64,000 nucleotides of DNA, from positions 32,087 to 96,086 of the forward strand of contig CALWVF010000039.1 of NCBI GenBank assembly GCA_944384925.1, written 5' to 3'. The notes below the pieces were generated by a model, which had not been told where the DNA came from, did not search any database, and saw only the letters and a program-made list of their open reading frames with translations. Position numbers and translations under genes: made by a program. Positions 9,885-54,099 of this stretch are shown piece by piece. The first letter of the stretch is position 1; every line of letters starts with the position of its first letter. The stretch comes from an uncultured Clostridia bacterium (GTDB lineage Bacteria > Bacillota > Clostridia > Oscillospirales > Acutalibacteraceae).

Positions 9885-11111
9885 CTAAGATATTGTTGTA
9901 TTCTTTACTTTTACGTAGCCTGTTATCGGTGATGGAACGGTAATTGTTTCAAAAGCTGAGCTTACAGTTGATTCTGCACTCATATTTTGAAACTTATATT
10001 TTGAATCTTTGAATATGGTAAGTTCTGTCATGCTTTCATATGCATCCACTGTGGAATACTTAGAAGAGCTATCAGAACCTCCTCCAAATAAAGCATAATT
10101 CCCTACGCTTGCTCCTGCTAACTCCCATCTTGCTTGACTTAATGCTGTCGTAGTACTCCTAGTTAAGCTAGTGTCATATGCATCTACTACGGGAGTATAA
10201 GTGCCAGATGAACCCCCTGCAAACAAAGCATAATTTCCTGCACTTGCTCCTGCTAAGTTAAACCTTTTTTCACTTAACGCTGTTGGAGTGCTTTTCACTA
10301 AGCTAGTGTTATATGCATCCACTGTTGAATAAATAGTACCACTAATAAATCCCCCAGCGAACAATGCATAGTTTCCTACATTTGCTCCTGCTAAACAATA
10401 CTTCGTTGAACTCAACGCTGTGGATGTACTTCTAGTTAAACTAGTACTATATGCATCTACTGTTGAATAATTAGTAGAACTACTATCCTGAATATGTCCC
10501 CCTGCAAACAATGCATAATCTCCTACACTTGTTGCGGCCAATTCACCTCTTGCTTGACTTAATGATGTCGGTGTACTTCTCACTAAGCTAGTGTTATATG
10601 CATTCACTACAGAAGACCCAATATAAGTACCAGCAGCATATGAAGAATAACCTCCGGCAAATAAAGCGTAATTTCCTACGCTTGCTCCTGCTAAGTTGCA
10701 TCTTCCTACACTTAATGATGTCGGTGTGCTTCTTGTTAAGCTAGAATTATAGGCATCTACTTTGGTATATAATATGTAGCCAGAAGTTGAGCTATAGGTC
10801 AACCCTCCAGCAAACAAAGCATAATCACCTACGCTTGCTCCTGCTAAGGAATACCTTGCTTGACTTAATGTTGTTGTAGTGCTTCTAGTTAAGCTAGCGT
10901 TATATGCATATACGTCTGCATAGGTAGAAGAACCATAACCTCCGACAAATAAAGCGTAATTTCCTACACTTGCTCCTGCTAAGTCGGTCCTTCCTGCATT
11001 TAATGCTGTCGGACTATTAGCTTTCACAAGCGTATTGCCGTCTGGATTATAATTCTCAAATTTAATTGTTGCATATCCTCCACCACGTCGTGATATTATA
11101 GCATTTCCCAT
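9885..11111 (-). CDS. Kelch-like 7-bladed beta-propeller repeat protein (putative receptor-binding/fibre protein)
   Basis: Seven ~46-50-aa repeats of the form LAGASVGNYALFAGG...(S)TVDAYNTSLTRSTPTALSQAR. The GG doublet plus aromatic pattern fits Kelch blades. Confidence 0.6.
   Translation of the reverse strand: MGNAIISRRGGGYATIKFENYNPDGNTLVKANSPTALNAGRTDLAGASVGNYALFVGGYGSSTYADVYAYNASLTRSTTTTLSQARYSLAGASVGDYALFAGGLTYSSTSGYILYTKVDAYNSSLTRSTPTSLSVGRCNLAGASVGNYALFAGGYSSYAAGTYIGSSVVNAYNTSLVRSTPTSLSQARGELAATSVGDYALFAGGHIQDSSSTNYSTVDAYSTSLTRSTSTALSSTKYCLAGANVGNYALFAGGFISGTIYSTVDAYNTSLVKSTPTALSEKRFNLAGASAGNYALFAGGSSGTYTPVVDAYDTSLTRSTTTALSQARWELAGASVGNYALFGGGSDSSSKYSTVDAYESMTELTIFKDSKYKFQNMSAESTVSSAFETITVPSPITGYVKVKNTTIS
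10017..10979 (-). repeat. Seven tandem ~140-150-bp coding repeats (Kelch-like blades)
   Basis: Recurrent DNA strings gcataatttcctacgcttgctcctgctaa / ccctgcaaacaaagcataat, at the period of the protein repeats. Confidence 0.7.
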
Positions 11112-11458
11112 TATCTCACCACCTCCAATTGAATAGGGATTGCTGTCGTTGGCTTATCTTCTAAACATATAGCCGTTATTTGATTTGTCCCTGTTTCTAT
11201 CTTAGAAACACATCCCCATGCTTCAAGTTGTTTTAAAGCTGTGGATTTTGTAGAACTTAATACAGCATCTACTATCGGTACATCTGTACTTGTAATTCCT
11301 GTAACTGTCACTGTTTGTGTATAGGGTGCACTGCTCCCTGTCCATGTCGTTGAAAGACTTGCTGTATATGTTTTTGTAGTTGTATCGGTATTTACAGTCC
11401 TTGTATTAAGAAACCCACATAAATTTTCAAGGGCTTTCGCGGCAGTAGCTACGTTTAT
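11111..11458 (-). CDS. Hypothetical fibre-module protein; start uncertain (GTG 11311, ATA 11458 or ATT 11476)
   Basis: The track ORF starts at GTG 11311. The frame is open for 55 more codons, back to the TAA at 11477-11479, with protein-like sequence (NVATAAKALENLCGFLNTRTVNTDTTTKTYTASLSTTWTGSSAPYTQTV) and no ATG/GTG/TTG. Confidence 0.4.
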   Translation of the reverse strand: MNVATAAKALENLCGFLNTRTVNTDTTTKTYTASLSTTWTGSSAPYTQTVTVTGITSTDVPIVDAVLSSTKSTALKQLEAWGCVSKIETGTNQITAICLEDKPTTAIPIQLEVVR

Positions 11459-11466
11459 TCTGCTTT

Positions 11467-13080
11467 TTAAAACAATTTATTCCTTTCAGAATCATAATCT
11501 TGTTTATCAGATTTATCCCCCTTAGGTCTTCCGGATTCCTTTTTTCTATTTGATTGGGTATAAAAGCTTTCATGTGGTGTAAATACATTGTTCCACCCAT
11601 TTTTATCCTCAAACTCTCTTTGTTTTAGCTCACTTTCAACATTTGCTATTCCCATAATTTCATATGCCTTCTTAATACTGCAATTAAGTTTTGTATACAT
11701 AAACTCCGATAAACTTTTTCTCATTTCAAAGTTTAATACCTCACTGTCAAGTATTCTTATTGTAGGAGACAGTTCTGGATTTAAACCCTTATCTTCCATG
11801 ATAACTTTATAAAATTTATTTATAACTCCCTCGAACTGTTCACCTATTGCATTAATCATTTTCATAAGTGCTTCGATAGCGATATTACATACATTAATAC
11901 TTGAATTATATGAATCCAAAAAAGAAACGCCCAAAGCTGTGAACACCTTTGAGCGATAAAAATTCAGTGTTTTTTCATCTGTTGTCTCAACAGATGGTTC
12001 AACATATTTTACAAAGTCAACCCAATGCTGAGAAGTATATAAAACTGTATCCTGCCTAAAGGCATTAGCTAATTCTTTATGCGCATGTGTAGCTTCTGCA
12101 AAAGCTTTTCTATTGCCTTCACTTCCTCCTAATTCTTTTCTTAGTCCTTGATGAATAATCTTTTTGGATTTTGCTTTAATTGTATTCTCGTCTGCCTTTT
12201 CTATAGTCTCTAACATTAAGGCTGGTTTTAGTGCCTTGAATACTGGACTAAGACCATAAAGTTCATCTAAGTTGTTTACTCTAATTAACCCCACTCTTTT
12301 TGGGTTTAAGGCAACCCATTTTTCTTTATTATTGTATGCATCAACGATTTCTGATGGATAATTGTTTTTTATAATTTCAGACATATCATTAAAAAATAGA
12401 TTTTTACCGTTCTTCTTTTTCCTAGATGATGGTTTAAGTTTTCTTTTTAATTCATCTATATTAAATGCTATTATAGGCTCTCCATTATACATATATTCTG
12501 TTACTTCACATATACCTAGAGGATACTTGTCAATAACATAATTGCCATTGTCATCGTTACGTAAATACAATATGTACGTACCTTCCAAGTAGCTCATGGG
12601 GATACCGTTTCTAAGTAATCTATCTAAGTTTACTTTATTATTAAAATCGTTTATTATATTTTGAATATCAATTGTATTATCTTCAGATGTATTTTGAGGA
12701 ATATTGTTAGGGGCATCTATTGTGTAGTCAGTGCTAACATAATTTTGAATTGATTCATACACTTTACCGATGATGTCATCCTTATTTACATACTGCTTAA
12801 CAAGTGCATTTATTTGTTTCACTTTATTTAAATCATTCTGTGGGTCATTAGCAAGGTTATTAACAAAATCTATAGTAGGGTGTTGTACAGAAGCCGCTTG
12901 ATTATCTAAAAAACTACTATATAACCCTTTTCTATATATGTCCTCATAGTCTTTAATTGCACTTGATAGTATCCTCTTTTCTATTTTTTCCATCTTATCA
13001 TTGTCTATAACGTCTTCTGAAACAGATGTAGCTAATAATACCTCATCTGAATCTGACATTATAACTTTAAAATCTTCCAA
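11467..13080 (-). CDS. Portal protein (putative)
   Basis: 537 aa, TTG start, immediately downstream of the large terminase. Acidic/basic C-terminal tail. Assigned by size and position. Confidence 0.6.
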   Translation of the reverse strand: MEDFKVIMSDSDEVLLATSVSEDVIDNDKMEKIEKRILSSAIKDYEDIYRKGLYSSFLDNQAASVQHPTIDFVNNLANDPQNDLNKVKQINALVKQYVNKDDIIGKVYESIQNYVSTDYTIDAPNNIPQNTSEDNTIDIQNIINDFNNKVNLDRLLRNGIPMSYLEGTYILYLRNDDNGNYVIDKYPLGICEVTEYMYNGEPIIAFNIDELKRKLKPSSRKKKNGKNLFFNDMSEIIKNNYPSEIVDAYNNKEKWVALNPKRVGLIRVNNLDELYGLSPVFKALKPALMLETIEKADENTIKAKSKKIIHQGLRKELGGSEGNRKAFAEATHAHKELANAFRQDTVLYTSQHWVDFVKYVEPSVETTDEKTLNFYRSKVFTALGVSFLDSYNSSINVCNIAIEALMKMINAIGEQFEGVINKFYKVIMEDKGLNPELSPTIRILDSEVLNFEMRKSLSEFMYTKLNCSIKKAYEIMGIANVESELKQREFEDKNGWNNVFTPHESFYTQSNRKKESGRPKGDKSDKQDYDSERNKLF

Positions 13081-13105: not shown

Positions 13106-14935
13106 TTAAAACTCAATATTAGAAACACATGATTCAGCTTGACAAATATCTTGTTTTTCTATATTTCTTTCAACTGTATCCTGCTTCTTTAATAAATATA
13201 GACCCCATGCACACAAGGCTGTAACGTATGCTCTGTCATCGTTGCAGTTCTTTTTCTTTTCGGGTGATACATCGTATCGGTAACTATTATTAGTACCATT
13301 GTATCTATAAATATTTATAAGCTCCTCGTGCGCAAGTTCTATGTTTTTATAAACTGCTATCTCATCTTCTGATAATTGATATGTGTATGGTTCTTGCTCA
13401 CCCTTGTTATCCTTAAATAAAGTAATATACTCATTATTGTCGTAACCCCCAACAAACTTTATAATACCTAAATTTAAGTATTCAATAAGGGCATCAAACA
13501 TTTGTGTTTTATATTTAGATGGAGATATTAAATTTAAGCAGTTATAAGCATTTGGAAATATCTCTATATATTCTTTTGAAACATCTGTATCAATTAGTCC
13601 CCTATGTTTTTTACCGTTAAAGTCTATCCAATCCTCCATAAAGTAATCAGCTAATATTCCTCCTCCGCCTCCTGAACCAGCATCAACAAATAAATCAATA
13701 GCTTCATAATCAGGATTTTTGCCATTGTATTTTAATATAAACTCTTTTAATAACTGTACTTGTTTAGGAATTTGTAGAGGTTTTTTGTGTTTGGAGTCAT
13801 AAAAAATTCCACAGTTAACAAATGTTCCACACCAACCAACACTTTGCTCATATTTACACTCCATTACTGCATAGGCAGAATTGTCAACCTTTTGTGCTGG
13901 GTCATAGGCTAGAATATATCTTTTCCTTTTAGATTTTTCTTTGTTATCATTATAAAAAACAGGTAAGCTTACAACTATATTTCTCATAAGAGTACTACGT
14001 TTTATTGGTTGATTATCTCCTCCGTTTATTGAAAATTTATTGTAATATTCCCTCATAGCTTTTTCTTTATTTTCCCTCATGGCATTATCAATAGTGGACT
14101 GTGATAACAGTGGCTTTATAGATACACCATTGTACATAGGATGCAACCCCATTTCAGCGTTCATATCACAAACAAAATACTTAGGGTCTCCCATAATCAT
14201 CTTTTTTGACCAGTCTTTATATGCTTTAAAAAAGTATTGGTCAACATCTGAAGCTGAAGAACACATTAATGCTTGATTTGGCATTTGTTTTGGTTCAAGT
14301 TCTGCATTTATGTGGTCACTTACTTTAAAGTCAGACGTAACACTTAAAAATGGAAGTGAATTTTGTATCAATCTCTCATCTAAAAATCCACACTCATCAT
14401 ATACATTTAAATTACTACGTTTTCCTCTTATAGTATCAAAATCGCTGGAAAGACTTGTAATCTCACTGCCATTAAACAAAGAATAATGAAACCCACTAGG
14501 TGCATGAACAATACCATCTTTGTTTGAAACTGATGTTATTAATTCACTGGAAAATAAGTCAGTTAAATCAGGGAAACTTTCAATCTGCCGCTTCATTATT
14601 TTTTCTATCTTCATAAACGACTCTTGGCTCTGTGAGCTTATACCACTTAGGATATAAGAAATATGATTGTTAAACAGAAGTTGTTTTGCCATAACAAAAG
14701 GAGCAACGAGAGTTGTTTTCCCGATGCCCCTTGAACACGCCCAAAGTATAAATTGTTTGTCCCAAGACGATAAAAATATATATTTTTGATTGTCAAGAAA
14801 CTTAAAGCCTATAAATTGCTCAACAAATTTTGTTGGGCTACTTCGACCCCACTGGACTATTTCCGACCACTTTTCATAAAGCTCTAATTTTTTTGAAGTG
14901 ATTTCTCTATTAGTTTTTTGTACATAAAACTCTAT
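13106..14935 (-). CDS. terL: Terminase large subunit (extended 81 codons upstream of the track ORF; apparent ATA start)
   Basis: The in-frame upstream extension encodes ...FILWACSRGIGKTTLVAPFV (Walker A). Walker B-like NVYDECGFLDE. Nuclease-domain acidic motifs ILAYDPA, VDAGSGGGG, CNDDRAYV. Confidence 0.85.
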   Translation of the reverse strand: MEFYVQKTNREITSKKLELYEKWSEIVQWGRSSPTKFVEQFIGFKFLDNQKYIFLSSWDKQFILWACSRGIGKTTLVAPFVMAKQLLFNNHISYILSGISSQSQESFMKIEKIMKRQIESFPDLTDLFSSELITSVSNKDGIVHAPSGFHYSLFNGSEITSLSSDFDTIRGKRSNLNVYDECGFLDERLIQNSLPFLSVTSDFKVSDHINAELEPKQMPNQALMCSSASDVDQYFFKAYKDWSKKMIMGDPKYFVCDMNAEMGLHPMYNGVSIKPLLSQSTIDNAMRENKEKAMREYYNKFSINGGDNQPIKRSTLMRNIVVSLPVFYNDNKEKSKRKRYILAYDPAQKVDNSAYAVMECKYEQSVGWCGTFVNCGIFYDSKHKKPLQIPKQVQLLKEFILKYNGKNPDYEAIDLFVDAGSGGGGGILADYFMEDWIDFNGKKHRGLIDTDVSKEYIEIFPNAYNCLNLISPSKYKTQMFDALIEYLNLGIIKFVGGYDNNEYITLFKDNKGEQEPYTYQLSEDEIAVYKNIELAHEELINIYRYNGTNNSYRYDVSPEKKKNCNDDRAYVTALCAWGLYLLKKQDTVERNIEKQDICQAESCVSNIEF

Positions 14936-14946
14936 AAATCATCACC

Positions 14947-16179
14947 TCAAACTCTTTGATATTTACTCTTATTTAAAATCTCATACTTAGTTTCTAATTG
15001 CTCTATATAACTTTGCATTTGAGAAATTATAGATTTATTGTCATTATTTCTTACTTTCTCTTGTCTGTACTGCTCTTCAAGTTTTGACACTTTTCCTTCA
15101 AGTTCTACTCGTATTTCTCTTAATTCTTTTATCATATCCCATAATTCGGATTCCTGAAGATTAATTTGCTCAATAATTGATTTATGACTTATATCTGCAA
15201 CCTGTTTCATAGATTCAGACGTTTGTATATCATATAAATTAACTTTAGCATCTCTTAGTCCAACCTCTCCAAGCTCTTTTACAATTCCACTTAAAGTCCC
15301 TGCTCCTTTGCTCTTTTGGGTACTGTAGCTAACGCTAATCCCATTATCTTTTGCAAGCCTTAAACAACTTGTGTACAGTTTTTCTTTAGAAGCTACCAAT
15401 GTACTTATTTTATTTGCATTATCTTCAATGTTATCAGGAGAAGCCATCATATTTGTAAAAGTTACGTTTAGTCTTTCAACTTGTCCTAAAGTCTTTACTA
15501 TTTCTATTACAATAAGCCTTTTAAATGGGTCTTCAAGCGTTGAATCATCTAAAAAGCGTATTAACGAGTTAAACAAGAATTTTCGCTCTTTAATTTCATA
15601 AGAAATAAATGGGTCATATCCTAGCATTTTTATACAATCGTTTCGATTAGTAATATCCTCTTCGTTTTCTACATTAGGATTTTCAACTACATTGCCATTT
15701 ATTTTTACTGCTCCCTCACGATACTTTTGCTCCAATAAATCTATATCTAAAAAGTTTGCACTGTCTCCAAAACTCTCCCCATAACCGCTATTAGCCTTAA
15801 AACTATTATATATATTTACGTAAGCAGTAGCGATTGAAACATTCATGCTAAGGCTTTTCTTTAGCGAACCCTCAAATATATTATTCGCATAATATAAGTC
15901 TATTTTTCTGCACAAGTAATACATAGCTAAATTAGTGTCGCCATATTGCCTACACATCTCATTAAACATTTCATTTATACAGTTCTTGCAATACGGAAGT
16001 TTACTCATGTTGTAGTTATAAATAGGATTATGTGATAAGTAAAATGAGTTCGGTTTTCCATTTAGTCCGCATCTAACACATAAAGGTGTACACACTGTTT
16101 GAGGTGTTTTTGTGGGGTCGTTTAAGTCTTTCTTTTTTATGGGCTTTGTTTTGGACGTTCCTTTCGGTCTACCAGCCAT
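14947..16179 (-). CDS. Putative terminase small subunit / DNA-binding packaging protein
   Basis: 410 aa. Basic N-terminus MAGRPKGTSKTKPIKKK, Cys pairs (CVRCG...CKNCI), long C-terminal coiled coil. Directly upstream of terL with its stop overlapping the terL SD. Confidence 0.35.
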   Translation of the reverse strand: MAGRPKGTSKTKPIKKKDLNDPTKTPQTVCTPLCVRCGLNGKPNSFYLSHNPIYNYNMSKLPYCKNCINEMFNEMCRQYGDTNLAMYYLCRKIDLYYANNIFEGSLKKSLSMNVSIATAYVNIYNSFKANSGYGESFGDSANFLDIDLLEQKYREGAVKINGNVVENPNVENEEDITNRNDCIKMLGYDPFISYEIKERKFLFNSLIRFLDDSTLEDPFKRLIVIEIVKTLGQVERLNVTFTNMMASPDNIEDNANKISTLVASKEKLYTSCLRLAKDNGISVSYSTQKSKGAGTLSGIVKELGEVGLRDAKVNLYDIQTSESMKQVADISHKSIIEQINLQESELWDMIKELREIRVELEGKVSKLEEQYRQEKVRNNDNKSIISQMQSYIEQLETKYEILNKSKYQRV

Positions 16180-30967: not shown

Positions 30968-31888
30968 TCATGTGATTTTGCCAATAAATCCATTAACTTT
31001 TCTTTTTAAATTATTTTTTGTTGGTCTGGTATATTTAAATGTTGTTTCGACTGATTTATGCCCTGCAAAATAAGCTATTTCATGAAGTTTTCCATCCTGC
31101 TCCAGTCCGTTTGTACAAAACCAATGCCTTAACTCATGTGGATGAATTTTTTTATTATACCTTTTAAATATCCTATTAATGCCTGATGTAGAAAGTTTAT
31201 CTGATTTTCTACTAATGAATACATATGGTGAATTTACATGCGCTCCATAATTTAATTTATTCCGTTCATTCTTTAGATACTTTTGCAATATCTTAGTACA
31301 CTCCATATCTAAATATACTGTTCTTTGTTTTTCTCCTTTCCCTGAATGTATCACAATTTCTTTTTTACTTAAATTCACATCTTCAAGTTCAATACATGCC
31401 ATTTCTTGTACTCTTAATCCTGTACATGCTAATAAATAAGCCATAGCATAATTTCTTAGATTATTGTCTTTTTTTAAATTACTTAAAAACTCCATTACTT
31501 CCCACTTTTCTACATCTGTAGGATTCAGGTATTCAGTTTGTACTTTTATCATATCTCTTTTTATTATTACTATTTCAACCATTTTTCCTATGTCAATCAA
31601 ATACTCATTATAACGCTTTAATACTGATAGTTTATGATTGATTGTCTTAGCATTTTGACGTAAACTCTCTTTAAGATACCTTTTATATAATAAAATATCA
31701 TCCCTTTTTAAATCTCTAATCATTCCAACATTGTTATACTGCCATTTATAATATAGGTTAAGTTCTATTCCATAGCTTTTAATAGTGTTTTCAGAGTAGG
31801 AATTACTTTTTAAATATTCTGTAAAGCCTCTAATACACCTCATTATGTCTTGATTAACACATGTTTCTATTTTATTATTTGTATCCAA
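30968..31888 (-). CDS. Tyrosine recombinase (XerC/D-phage integrase family)
   Basis: 306 aa. ACTGLRVQE (Arg I), HELRHWF (HxxR), AGHKSVETTFKYT (His/Tyr). Confidence 0.8.
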   Translation of the reverse strand: MDTNNKIETCVNQDIMRCIRGFTEYLKSNSYSENTIKSYGIELNLYYKWQYNNVGMIRDLKRDDILLYKRYLKESLRQNAKTINHKLSVLKRYNEYLIDIGKMVEIVIIKRDMIKVQTEYLNPTDVEKWEVMEFLSNLKKDNNLRNYAMAYLLACTGLRVQEMACIELEDVNLSKKEIVIHSGKGEKQRTVYLDMECTKILQKYLKNERNKLNYGAHVNSPYVFISRKSDKLSTSGINRIFKRYNKKIHPHELRHWFCTNGLEQDGKLHEIAYFAGHKSVETTFKYTRPTKNNLKRKVNGFIGKIT

Positions 31889-31944
31889 TTTCTTATTTAT
31901 ATTATACTTTAGTTTAGGTATAACTATCCCCTCTCATTCTTCAT

Positions 31945-41672: not shown

Positions 41673-42137
41673 ATGACTGAACAAGAAAAACAAAGCTGGG
41701 CAGAGCTTTGTTTATACGTAAAAAAAGAAATTTTAAATTATGATGACAACATGAAATTTCCAAAATATCTTGCACTAAGACTAAGAGGATTAAAATCAGG
41801 GCAGTTCATAGCCAATAAAAATATTAAAACACAGGCAAATTATAGCTTTGATATCATACTAAAAACTTTTAAAGAATATAGAAACACAATTTTAAATGCA
41901 GTCAGTCAAAAGAACTTTAAGTCAGAACAAAATAAAATTAACTACATTCTAGCTATCATTGAGAGAAATATAAACGATGTTTATTTAAGTGAACAAAAGA
42001 AAGATAAAGTTGAAAGTCAAATAAACATTGATGATTTTAGTCTCTTTATTAATACCCCCGAAGGTTCATCTTTACACAAAAATACAAAAACTAAAAGCCA
42101 AAAAACCTTTGATGCATTAGTAAAGGAGTTGTGGTAG
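41673..42137 (+). CDS. Hypothetical replication-module protein
   Basis: ATG 41673 (MTEQEKQ...) just after the upstream stop; the track start at 41652 overlaps the upstream gene. Confidence 0.4.
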   Translation: MTEQEKQSWAELCLYVKKEILNYDDNMKFPKYLALRLRGLKSGQFIANKNIKTQANYSFDIILKTFKEYRNTILNAVSQKNFKSEQNKINYILAIIERNINDVYLSEQKKDKVESQINIDDFSLFINTPEGSSLHKNTKTKSQKTFDALVKELW

Positions 42138-43636
42138 ATGTGGTATCGCAGAAAAATACTCTATGGGAAAATGAATGCCTTAAAGCAAAAAAGAAGATAT
42201 CAGAAAACTCTTTAGCATCTGAAGCTAACGTATGTGCAATCCTTTGGAAAGAACCAGATTTATATGATATGTATGAATCTTTAGCCTTGGATGACTTTCA
42301 AAATAATTGTTGGAAAGTGTTTTTTGAAATAGGCAGACAAATTATATCTGATGAAAAGAAACATACATTAGACGAATTAACTGTAAGCTTCTACTTAACA
42401 AAACACGATAAATTAAAAGAAAAATATGAAGAATATGGTGGATTTAATACTATAAGCCAAGCTATGGAATATGTAAACACTTCAAATATTGACGGATATA
42501 TTAAAGACCTGTATAAATTCAAGACTCTAAAAACCATGCTATTTTTAGGTTTTCCTGTTGCTAAAAATCTTTCAAAATACATGGATATGACTTTAGAACA
42601 AATATATCAAACATTTGAAGCCATTTTAAATCACACATTTGCCAATGCCCAAATTTCTACCCCCACATATAACGTAGCTGATGGCATATTTGATTTAATA
42701 GAAAGTCTTAATAAAGGGCAGCACTTTGGTTTACCGCTTGACAGCTCAACACTTTTGAATGAACAAATCGCAGGTATTCAAAAAGGACATATATACATGT
42801 TAGGAATGTCGAGTGGTGGCGGTAAAAGCTTTTTAATGTGTCGATGGCTCTTGCCCAGCATAATTAAAGCCAATGAAAAAATTTGCATAATACTTAATGA
42901 AGAAGACTATACCAGAGTACAAACAGAATTACTTATATATTTCGCTAACAATGTTTTGGGCGGAAACATCCATAAGATAACCCTAAGAAACGGTAACTTT
43001 GACGATAAGACAAAAGACTTATTATACCGTGCGGCTGAAGAAATACAAAAGTTAAAAGAAAATCACACAATTACTATTATTTGTCTTGAATCATATAATG
43101 TAGACACTGCAATAAAACACATAAAAAAATATGCTTCCCTTGGCTGTTCATATTTTGTTCTTGATACCTTAAAGCTTAGTAATAATTCCATTGGAGAAAA
43201 CAGTTGGCTATCACTTCAAACTGATGTAGTAAAACTATATGACATTATAAAACCCGCTGGAAAAAATGTAGCTTTATTCCTTACTATGCAACTTGGAAAG
43301 CAAAGTCTTAATCAAAGGTATTTAAACAGTTTTTCCATTGGGGTATCTAAAAATGTAGTTGACGTTGCCAGTTGTTGTCTACTTGCAAGAATGGTTCTAC
43401 CAGATGAAAGAGAAAACCAAAGAAATTCTATAAAGTGTTTCCGTAGAGAAGGAAAAAATGGTCTTACTGAAATACCCTTTACATTAGACACGGATGCAAG
43501 AAAAAATTATCTGTTAATTTTTATTGCTAAGAACAGATTTGGGTATGCTAACAGCTATCAAATTGTCGCTGAAGTTGACTTTAGCACCAACTATTACAAG
43601 GAAATAGGATATGCAAAGGTTTTGCCTGATTTCTAG
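42131..43636 (+). CDS. DnaB-like replicative helicase
   Basis: 501 aa. Walker A MLGMSSGGGKSF, Walker B-like YFVLDTLK, RecA-fold C-terminal half. The start may be GTG 42140. Confidence 0.65.
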   Translation: MVDVVSQKNTLWENECLKAKKKISENSLASEANVCAILWKEPDLYDMYESLALDDFQNNCWKVFFEIGRQIISDEKKHTLDELTVSFYLTKHDKLKEKYEEYGGFNTISQAMEYVNTSNIDGYIKDLYKFKTLKTMLFLGFPVAKNLSKYMDMTLEQIYQTFEAILNHTFANAQISTPTYNVADGIFDLIESLNKGQHFGLPLDSSTLLNEQIAGIQKGHIYMLGMSSGGGKSFLMCRWLLPSIIKANEKICIILNEEDYTRVQTELLIYFANNVLGGNIHKITLRNGNFDDKTKDLLYRAAEEIQKLKENHTITIICLESYNVDTAIKHIKKYASLGCSYFVLDTLKLSNNSIGENSWLSLQTDVVKLYDIIKPAGKNVALFLTMQLGKQSLNQRYLNSFSIGVSKNVVDVASCCLLARMVLPDERENQRNSIKCFRREGKNGLTEIPFTLDTDARKNYLLIFIAKNRFGYANSYQIVAEVDFSTNYYKEIGYAKVLPDF

Positions 43637-43657
43637 TTTGTTAGGTGGTGAATTAAA

Positions 43658-44707
43658 ATAAATGTCACCGAATTAAAACAATTTATTATAGATAATAATA
43701 AGCAAGTAAAAATTCTTGAAGCGTTAAAATGCCATCACATAAGCCAAAAATGTAACCAAATAAGAGCTGCATATCCTGACGGAGATAATACATCGGCAAT
43801 ATGTGTATATTTAGATAGTCTAAAAGTACGCACTTACACTCACAATCAATTCTGCGGTGATATTTTTACTCTTGTCGGAGAAATTTTAGACCTAAACTTT
43901 TCCGCTTCATTAAGATGGGTTCATAAAGTTCTAAATATAAAACAAAATCAATGTAGTTATTTAACTAATAAAGAGGATTTAAAACACCAATTCCTTTCAG
44001 TCTTTACAAAGCATTTGTCTTGCTCTAAGCAAAGCTATAAAGACCAGCAAGTCTATGATGAAAGAATTATAGATAATTATATTCCTGCTTTACATACTAG
44101 TTGGCTAAATGAAGGAATTACCGAACTAACACGCAAAACATTTAACATTCGATACTGTCAAAATAGCAACAGGATAATTATCCCATATAGAAGTATAAAT
44201 GAATATAAAAAGTACATTGGGATAGTTGGCAGAACTACTTGTGATATGTATAAAGAACTTGGTATACCAAAATATTTAGCTATAAAACCATTTCAAAAAT
44301 CCGCTACATTATATGGCTTTATCGAAAACTATAATTCAATTCAAAAAACATCTTATGTAGTTATATTCGAGGCTGAAAAGTCTGTTTTAAAAAGATATAG
44401 TAGATTAGACGGCACAGCTTTAGCTTTAGGTGGACATGCTATTAGTAAAAAACAAATAGAGCTTGTCTTAGGACTAAATGTAGATATTGTAATTGCTTTT
44501 GATAAAGATATCAGTATTCAAGATGTCAGAGCTACATGTGAGAAGCTTTGGCTATACAGAAAAACTTATTATATATATGACAAGTGGGATTTATTAGGTG
44601 ATAAGGACAGTCCTGCCGATTTAGATAATCAAAACTACAAATTCATGCTTGATAATAAAGTTTCTTATAATGAAAGCGAACATAAGAAGTATCTTTCTGG
44701 GAGATGA
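43658..44707 (+). CDS. Toprim-domain DNA primase (extended 119 codons upstream of the track ORF; apparent ATA start)
   Basis: The open frame from 43652 encodes NVTELKQFIIDNNKQVKILEALKCHHISQKCNQIRAAYPDGDNTSAICVY... with no ATG/GTG/TTG before 44015. Toprim E (VVIFEAEKS) and DxD (VIAFDKD). Confidence 0.65.
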   Translation: MNVTELKQFIIDNNKQVKILEALKCHHISQKCNQIRAAYPDGDNTSAICVYLDSLKVRTYTHNQFCGDIFTLVGEILDLNFSASLRWVHKVLNIKQNQCSYLTNKEDLKHQFLSVFTKHLSCSKQSYKDQQVYDERIIDNYIPALHTSWLNEGITELTRKTFNIRYCQNSNRIIIPYRSINEYKKYIGIVGRTTCDMYKELGIPKYLAIKPFQKSATLYGFIENYNSIQKTSYVVIFEAEKSVLKRYSRLDGTALALGGHAISKKQIELVLGLNVDIVIAFDKDISIQDVRATCEKLWLYRKTYYIYDKWDLLGDKDSPADLDNQNYKFMLDNKVSYNESEHKKYLSGR

Positions 44708-53552: not shown

Positions 53553-53628
53553 TGGTGAGCCATCGGGGATTCGAACCCCGGACACCTTGATTAAAAGTCA
53601 AGTGCTCTGCCAACTGAGCTAATGGCTC
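53553..53628 (-). tRNA. tRNA-Lys (anticodon UUU)
   Basis: GAGCCATTAGCTCAGTTGGCAGAGCACTTGACTTTTAATCAAG...GGTTCGAATCC...GGCTCACCA. Full cloverleaf, CCA encoded. Confidence 0.9.
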
Positions 53629-53712
53629 ATATTTACTTTTAAAAATAAACTTTAATACAAATTAATTAAGAATAATAAATATATGTACATTCTCAAAATG
53701 CACCTTTTTAAG

Positions 53713-53788
53713 TGGCTGGGATGGCTGGATTCGAACCAGCGCAATGACGGAGTCAAAGTCCGTTGCCTTACCGCTTGGCTACATCCCA
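53713..53788 (-). tRNA. tRNA-Gln (anticodon UUG)
   Basis: TGGGATGTAGCCAAGCGGTAAGGCAACGGACTTTGACTCCGT...GGTTCGAATCC...CCCAGCCA. Confidence 0.9.
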
Positions 53789-53826
53789 ACATATAATCAA
53801 ATTAAAATCCAATTACCTTTAGAACA

Positions 53827-53904
<78 letters not shown>

Positions 53905-53907
53905 ATA

Positions 53908-53984
53908 TGGCGCGCCAGAAGGGACTCGAACCCCTGGCCTACTGCTTAGAAGGCAGTTGCTCTATCCAGCTGAGCTACTGGCGC
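53908..53984 (-). tRNA. tRNA-Arg (anticodon UCU)
   Basis: GCGCCAGTAGCTCAGCTGGATAGAGCAACTGCCTTCTAAGCAGT...GGTTCGAGTCC...GGCGCGCCA. Confidence 0.9.
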
Positions 53985-54025
53985 AAATACAACTAACCAG
54001 CTTGTACTTTTACCTGATTAATTAA

Positions 54026-54099
54026 TGGAGCGGGTGATGGGAATCGAACCCACGCGACCAGCTTGGAAGGCTGGAGTTCTACCATTGAACTACACCCGC
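54026..54099 (-). tRNA. tRNA-Gly (anticodon UCC)
   Basis: GCGGGTGTAGTTCAATGGTAGAACTCCAGCCTTCCAAGCTGG...GGTTCGATTCC...CCCGCTCCA. Confidence 0.9.

Follow-up and report, generated by a model that had tools for sequence, protein, structure and literature searches.

In Escherichia coli and its relatives the infC gene, which encodes initiation factor 3 (IF3), has a conserved AUU start that holds its translation down; the normal initiator tRNA reads this codon, subject to proofreading by IF3. Hairpins that sequester a Shine-Dalgarno (SD) sequence enforce coupling between the coat and replicase genes of the RNA phage MS2 and in many bacterial operons. The 1990 work of Peijnenburg et al. reportedly concerns an AUA restart codon in Bacillus subtilis, placed in an engineered penP-lacZ fusion. 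Here we consider two genes of an SPbeta-like prophage, those of the large terminase (TerL) and the DNA primase, which lie in a stretch of 64,000 nucleotides (the window) from an uncultured Clostridia bacterium of the Acutalibacteraceae (GenBank GCA_944384925.1, contig CALWVF010000039.1, positions 32,087 to 96,086). In both, a conserved N-terminal part lies upstream of any canonical start codon. Judging from comparison with relatives, we believe that both are very probably intact genes translated from AUA.

A close known system is that of Staphylococcus aureus, in which retapamulin ribosome profiling and reporter assays established AUA as the start of infC, ccpN and citZ (Kohl et al. 2026, PMC13009471). 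The AUA/AUU starts reported there are those of ccpN, infC, citZ and cvfC1; the AUA codons follow SDs that are strong and extended, their output in reporters is about 10% (up to 30%) of that of AUG, and the AUA of ccpN is conserved in B. subtilis (PMC13009471). A small number of bacterial ATA starts have been reported, and bioRxiv 10.64898/2026.10.01.756105 cites them, that of Peijnenburg 1990 included. Initiation at AUA downstream of a strong SD is already known in Firmicutes, if rarely recognised; what is new here is the case of a phage TerL and primase. Also new is the predicted enclosure of the terminase SD and ATA in a conserved hairpin, with an anti-SD mimic and the upstream stop codon in the stem, which suggests coupled reinitiation.

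With the four S. aureus genes the window genes share a Firmicute host, an AUA at an SD-defined position, a strong long SD and conservation of the codon in relatives; by analogy, initiation would be expected to be attenuated (to about 10-30%) and IF3-sensitive. They differ in being a phage packaging ATPase and a primase known from sequence alone, and in that the terminase SD is buried in a predicted hairpin covering the upstream stop codon. What is shared with E. coli infC is a conserved near-cognate start as a translation brake, and the window host's own infC apparently starts at ATT; the E. coli codon is AUU, and TerL and primase have AUA and no evident autoregulatory logic. The B. subtilis restart resembles the terminase in having AUA a few nucleotides past an upstream stop in a Gram-positive host, with restart plausible; it was engineered, whereas the window arrangement is natural, conserved and accompanied by an SD-sequestering hairpin. 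As in hairpins of the MS2 type, the downstream SD is predicted to be paired, with a stop codon in the stem, and would be opened by ribosomes translating the upstream gene; in the window the restart codon is, in addition, near-cognate, and the hairpin is closed by an anti-SD mimic within the downstream coding sequence (CDS).

Start regions of the terminase and primase genes

The terminase locus has the following features, all on the minus strand.

13106..14935, minus strand: large terminase (TerL, in the position of YonF), corrected CDS with a putative ATA start, 609 codons and stop; open frame, PHROG 2/9
14933..14935, minus strand: putative start codon ATA, aligned with ATG in relatives
14941..14948, minus strand: SD GAGGTGAT, 8 contiguous nt complementary to the canonical bacterial 16S 3' tail
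14693..14932, minus strand: N-terminal extension absent from gene calls, codons 2-81, containing Walker A
14711..14734, minus strand: Walker A motif 'SRGIGKTT', S69-T76 of P0001 (the window terminase), inside the extension
14892..14951, minus strand: predicted hairpin sequestering SD and ATA, fold z = -2.8
14947..16179, minus strand: upstream YonG-like gene, whose TGA stop (14949-14947) overlaps the SD; Pfam YonG_N is found on homologous neighbours
14910..14942, minus strand: short out-of-frame open reading frame (ORF) ATG..TAA (MIYRVLCTKN*), rejected as the terminase source

The terminase frame begins after TGA TGA (14944-14939) with TTT ATA GAG and is open from 14938 for 610 codons, to the stop at 13106; the junction reads ...AAAGAGTT TGA GGTGATGATTT ATA GAGTTTTATGTACAAAAAACT... 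on the minus strand. Its first in-frame ATG, GTG or TTG is the ATG at 14692, which lies 82 codons past the stop and 81 past the ATA and has no SD. The ATA stands 6 nt past GAGGTGAT and 9 nt past the last G of the core equivalent to GGAGG; in the ATG genes of this genome the SD spacing peaks at 7 nt and 6-10 nt is common, and the terminase value of 9 nt is within this range.

The extension holds 12 invariant columns of the 23-sequence family alignment (K17...G73 K74 F81), R70, G73 and K74 being invariant among them, and the matches to PHROG 2 and 9 ('terminase large subunit') begin within it. A portal gene (phrog_2739) lies directly downstream, and homologs named terminase also adjoin a portal gene. 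With an N-terminal ATPase carrying Walker A, a profile match and a portal neighbour, the minus-strand gene 13106..14935 is a TerL; at default thresholds it had no Pfam match, and a profile search of PDB gave none.

The primase locus lies on the other strand.

43658..44707, plus strand: DNA primase, corrected CDS with a putative ATA start (43658-43660), 349 codons; PHROG 6444 primase
43643..43651, plus strand: SD AGGTGGTGA, with a 6-nt spacer to the ATA, as in the terminase
42131..43636, plus strand: upstream DnaB-like helicase gene (PF00772), with its stop TAG (43634-43636) 6 nt ahead of the primase SD

The primase frame is open from 43652, and its first canonical start, TTG 44015, lies 119 codons past the ATA; the product had no Pfam match at default thresholds. 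An earlier reading made from the letters alone (the sequence-only reading) had described the terminase frame as open upstream of ATG 14692 up to a TGA, free of ATG, GTG and TTG in its extension, carrying Walker A there and entering it with an ATA at 14935-14933 shortly after an SD, and had noted a like arrangement in the primase. The translated frames bear out all of this, with the 6-nt spacer after GAGGTGAT in the terminase and the primase ATA at 43658, 6 nt past AGGTGGTGA.

Such leaders are exceptional in this genome. The 1120 open frames that span 150 codons or more have start-less leaders with a median length of 5 codons, the 95th and 99th percentiles being 32 and 95; in frames of more than 300 codons, leaders longer than 80 codons occur only in the terminase, the primase and aroB. 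Since the terminase and primase leaders are extreme against this distribution, they are beyond chance.

The sequence-only reading had proposed to ask whether the equivalent codon is ATG in related terminases. It is in relatives at 81%, 62% and 50% identity, where it follows a homologous SD. The window protein reads I-E-F-Y-V-Q-K-T at this point, and the relatives P0004 (81% identity), P0006 (62%) and P0007 (51%) start with MEFCIPKT, MEFFAKTT and MEFYVQKT. The ATA aligns with ATG (MEF... or MDF...) in these three and in the loci L079 and L080, and with ATG in L012 as well; the start column is M in 12 of the 22 homologs in the terminase alignment (A1). At the DNA level the SD, the spacer, the ATG or ATA and the following GAN TTT align between the window and its relatives, as follows.

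L079: AAGGTGGTGAgtcga ATG gaa ttt
L080: AAGGTGGTatttt ATG gat ttc
L012: ...AAAGAGcaa ATG gaa ttt
window: GAGGTGATgattt ATA gag ttt

The homologous SDs of the relatives are AAGGTGGTGA, AAGGTGGT and GAGGTGGT. A stronger SD that would compensate for ATA was not clearly seen in this comparison, as the ATG-bearing L079 and L080 also have strong SDs.

Two close relatives keep the ATA. L010 (ENA ERZ27298417, 93% amino acid identity) and L011 (Logan SRR32648381, 97%) both read GAGGTGATGATTT ATA GAG TTT TAT. In a clade at 50% identity, L042 (ERR12318434) reads GAGGTGGTagt ATA gat ttt ttc gta aaa acc, and its clade mates P0007, P0029 and L080 have ATG GAT/GAA TTT at the position of this ATA; by this comparison L042 is an independent change from ATG to ATA in the same terminase family. 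In the primase the position of the ATA is taken by TTG in L082 (46% identity; context AAGGAAGTGAgatt TTG aac). P0131 and P0137 begin at the homologous codon, relatives at 58-60% identity begin three codons earlier, and L013, the primase of SRR32648381, keeps AGGTGGTGA-N6-ATA.

Exact-pattern scans for GAGGTGATGATTTATRGAGTTTTAT in metagenome, genome and viral collections gave no match, nor did blastn of the terminase locus against 50,697 phage records; tblastn of the terminase in the phage collection found only relatives at 23-29% identity, and no close terminase was present among 200 genomes of the same family. In SPbetaL5 and Staphylococcus SPbeta-like 2 the terminase starts are annotated ordinarily.

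Selection on the extensions and other explanations

The sequence-only reading offered three explanations and chose none: genuine AUA initiation, inactivation by mutation of ATG to ATA, and recoding from a nearby ATG. The first is supported by ATG in relatives, the conserved ATA, purifying selection, the pattern in host genes and the Firmicutes precedent; neither of the other two was borne out.

Inactivation would mean that point mutations of ATG to ATA crippled two essential genes of a defective or domesticated prophage and that the extensions are untranslated. ATG to ATA is a single G-to-A transition, favoured in a genome of 30% GC, and N-terminal disruptions do occur in other family members (L038 has an in-frame TGA, L040 carries inserts with stops, and the frame changes in loci of Paenibacillus). 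The coding constraint contradicts this explanation. Among the ATA-lineage terminases the synonymous divergence (dS) is 0.40-0.90, and the ratio of nonsynonymous to synonymous divergence (dN/dS) in the terminase extension is 0.046 (dS 0.56) against L010 and 0.065 (dS 0.40) against L011, with 0.035-0.047 in the rest of the gene; by these estimates selection on the extension is indistinguishable from that on the remainder. The primase extension gives 0.15 against L013 at dS 0.65, and the remainder of that gene 0.11. At dS 0.4-0.9 the strong purifying selection on each gene thus covers its extension to the same degree. A knocked-out start would leave these codons free to decay; since selection persists (dN/dS of about 0.05 in the terminase extension), the extension is most readily taken as translated.

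The ATA is, moreover, kept in three diverged lineages of the terminase and two of the primase, despite an A-to-G reversion being one step away. The 81 and 119 extension codons contain no stops or frameshifts, the optimally spaced SD is conserved, and host housekeeping genes share the pattern. With an extension dN/dS of 0.05-0.15 and frames intact in all lineages, neither gene looks like a pseudogene, and we consider inactivation quite improbable, even though it is the best of the alternatives.

Recoding, which the sequence-only reading itself had ranked lower, would have ribosomes start at a nearby out-of-frame ATG (14942 in the terminase, 43662 in the primase) and shift into the long ORF. Such an ATG does exist in both genes, and the terminase short ORF contains an A6 run. 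The ATG at 14942 lies inside the SD (GAGGTGATG) and has no usable spacer; the short ORF ends at differing codons in the window, L010 and L011, and after 7 codons in L011; no known slippery motif was seen. Recoding would require a shift of +1 in the terminase and of -1 in the primase, yet the geometry from SD to ATA is identical in the two, and the relatives carry ATG or TTG at the ATA position. We give this explanation slightly less credence than inactivation.

Another possibility, a shade less probable again, is a dedicated initiator-type tRNA with the anticodon UAU that reads ATA as a cognate start; the incompleteness of the assembly for tRNAs would allow for one. ARAGORN on the whole genome assembly found no UAU anticodon and exactly three CAU tRNAs, the usual ones: an initiator of canonical type (C1-A72 mismatch, anticodon stem with three G-C pairs), one like tRNA-Ile2, and the elongator Met. 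Rfam finds only five tRNAs in the window (53553-54099, minus strand, beside the prophage end: Lys-UUU, Gln-UUG, His, Arg-UCU and Gly-UCC), and the adjoining 32 kb on its left contain none. These five are the only copies of their species in the assembly and hence host genes rather than phage cargo. ATA as a start is used by only two or three prophage genes, and host genes also use it. With no UAU tRNA found, it would fall to the normal initiator tRNA to read AUA, as a near-cognate codon.

A reassigned code, with ATA as Met throughout, was likewise rejected: TilS is present in the genome along with the tRNA-Ile2-like CAU species, and homologs have I, V or L opposite the internal ATA codons of the terminase, while the first ATA aligns with M. 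ATA is, on this comparison, Ile in elongation, and decoding is standard.

An error of sequencing or assembly at the start codon, for which it can be said that the genome is a 40-contig draft, is practically excluded, because the same ATA and context recur in independent assemblies (ERZ27298417, SRR32648381) that differ at many synonymous sites, three assemblies in all carrying the ATA.

The predicted junction hairpin and proposed translational coupling

AUA initiation is the explanation that we retain. From the observed anatomy, the homologous start position, the conservation and recurrence of the ATA, the purifying selection and the ordinary decoding of ATA within the gene we infer actual initiation at AUA, and with it the efficiency, the IF3 dependence and the coupling discussed below. 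The host initiator tRNA (anticodon CAU) would read AUA with a C-A mismatch at the third position, and the protein would begin with fMet, not Ile. The long SD (GAGGUGAU; in the primase AGGUGGUGA) would hold the 30S subunit and set AUA in the P site at the normal spacing of this genome. IF3 would discriminate against AUA and bring the output to a fraction of that of AUG. The codon would then act as an inherent brake on two enzymes of which little is needed.

In the terminase a predicted hairpin is superimposed on this start. Its 5' arm UUUGAGGUGAU (14951-14941) contains the upstream stop codon and the whole SD; its 3' arm AUCACUUCAAA (14902-14892) is an anti-SD mimic in terminase codons 13-17; the inner stem, which pairs 14938-14926 with 14917-14906, carries the AUA. 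The same hairpin is the minimum-free-energy fold in L010 and L011, and the probability that the SD is unpaired is 0.01 in all three sequences, below the 1st percentile (0.028; median 0.46) of 194 genes of the genome that have an SD and ATG.

Across the three sequences all 66 pair cells hold standard pairs, as against 45-62% when the partner is slid. The region has ten variable columns, five unpaired and five paired, and all five paired changes keep the pairing, being one-sided (G-C to G-U or U-A to U-G). Taken together, this conservation is suggestive of a real structure. In the predicted folds of L079, L042 and L080, too, GGUGGU is joined to a downstream ACCACC or ACCACU, in a looser pairing.

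Because the SD and AUA are locked in a predicted hairpin with the upstream stop codon in its stem, translational coupling to the upstream gene is the most likely route to TerL, and we favour it by a small margin over its absence. The closed hairpin would block free initiation; a ribosome terminating at UGA 14949-14947 would melt it and restart 12 nt downstream at AUA. The result would be a small fixed amount of TerL per upstream protein, and likewise of primase per helicase.

Several points weigh against this account. The assembly lacks some tRNAs (41 were found), and an unassembled unusual tRNA is conceivable. The 3' end of the host 16S is absent from the assembly as well, and the anti-SD is assumed to be the canonical tail. 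The SD++ motifs of Kohl et al. (AGGNAT, AGGNGT, GGGNAT, GGGNGT; PMC13009471) are absent, by eye, from both 20-nt upstream stretches; the window SDs are instead complementary over 8-9 contiguous nt to the canonical 16S tail. The evidence for the hairpin comes from three sequences with one-sided changes and no double compensatory change. The primase ribosome-binding site is not unusually structured (hairpin z = -0.84, probability of being unpaired 0.28), and coupling is less well supported there.

It is tempting to go further and to propose that the weak AUA and the anti-SD hairpin together form a selected dosing device, which would keep the packaging ATPase (and the primase) at a fixed small fraction of the upstream partner and would have arisen at least twice in SPbeta-like terminases. 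The host would then be a reduced AT-rich Clostridia lineage in which ATA is a regular fourth start codon (about 0.5% of genes), with initiation fidelity tuned by lineage and tracked by its phages. We offer this wider proposal tentatively and hold it to be rather doubtful as a whole.

Apparent ATA and ATT starts elsewhere, and gene calls

The whole genome was scanned for frames in which any of the 61 sense codons stands at SD spacing, provided that the leader looked coding and that no canonical start with an SD was close by. Of the 61 codons ATA came first, with 8-9 matches; the totals are about 7 ATA and 4 ATT candidates in about 1,340 coding-looking frames, so that apparent ATA/ATT starts make up about 0.5-0.8% of genes. 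This indicates a host lineage with unusually frequent ATA starts. The host candidates, which lie outside the window, are the following.

G000 C39:102265-103329, plus strand: aroB, apparent ATA start
C11:23933, minus strand: GNAT acetyltransferase, apparent ATA start, AAGGAGGagtagat ATA; Pfam domain from residue 6
C34:1882, plus strand: unnamed 162-aa ORF, ATA candidate, less certain
C9:47928, minus strand: DUF2752 gene, ATA candidate, less certain
C14:37206, minus strand: radical-SAM gene, apparent ATT start, GAGGTGATttaac ATT
C27 about 24300, minus strand: infC, probable ATT start, GGAGGTGcttg ATT ATT

The aroB start is AAGGGGGtttttATAATAaaaaaa (ATA ATA), where relatives have ATG ATG AAA AAA; aroB and the GNAT gene are, by their sequence, convincing host cases of an ATA start. 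The host infC most likely starts at ATT. The matches C7:36734, C1:7262 and C13:7819 were discarded, as they look like antisense shadow frames.

Two further prophage genes were noted. The tyrosine recombinase (PHROG 1 integrase; 30968-31921, minus strand) has an SD-spaced ATA at 31921 (GAGAGGGGATagtt ATA), whereas the first canonical start of this gene, TTG 31888, comes 11 codons later and has no SD; the ATA is possibly a third ATA start in the prophage, less certain than the other two. A small gene after the portal (11111-11476, minus strand) has 55 start-less codons and two start candidates, ATT 11476 (just past the portal stop region, with a weak AAAGGA) and ATA 11458. It is a weaker case than the terminase and primase, and its cassette is absent from L011.

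Standard gene finders accept only ATG, GTG and TTG and truncate genes with ATA starts, so that the products lose the P-loop of the ATPase or entire domains. All the gene callers concerned cut the present genes short, and the practical importance of the case is therefore chiefly one of annotation. In three assemblies the terminase is called at 528, 593 and 502 aa (593 in L010, 502 in L011) and the primase at 230 or 212 aa; the call for the L042 terminase starts inside Walker A, and the aroB product is called at 261 aa instead of 354, the database call being 93 codons short. Such truncated calls make intact phages and pathways look broken in estimates of completeness and in pseudogene calls. If the present explanation is right, phage packaging and replication enzymes are to be added to the small set of genes in which a conserved AUA start restrains expression.

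In two host ORFs, C40:2900-3421 and C22:19560-19900 (both on the plus strand), a good SD and ATG are out of frame with the long coding frame; one of the two encodes an XRE-type HTH protein and has an A7 run directly after the ATG. They may be homopolymer frameshifts or pseudogenes.

The terminase family contains other oddities near the N-terminus. In L038 and L039, from a set of six gut-metagenome contigs, an in-frame TGA followed by GTG stands between ...GIEFM and DYQRY... at about 1495-1503; 2 codons are added relative to relatives, and the gene is called as 43-aa and 572-aa pieces. This could be readthrough, a split gene or decay. L040 and L041 (JGI 3300033802, SRR8874314) have TAGGTTAACTAG at about 1415-1430, directly after the conserved QWGR codons; with two TAG stops either side of a GTTAAC site, it looks like an insertion of the stop-linker type or an odd natural insert.

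In L047, L049 and L072, from three Paenibacillus species, the first 30 or so terminase codons (...KIEGYLKLA) are in a different frame from the rest. The switch lies near the QWGR codons, about 30 nt before position 1201, and may reflect either programmed frameshifting or decay that the three have in common in a domesticated element. Finally, an intein-like insert (Pfam LAGLIDADG_3 / Hom_end) directly follows the GK of Walker A in L054, L058, P0038, P0056, P0059, P0067, P0105 and P0112, the products being 950-990 aa long.

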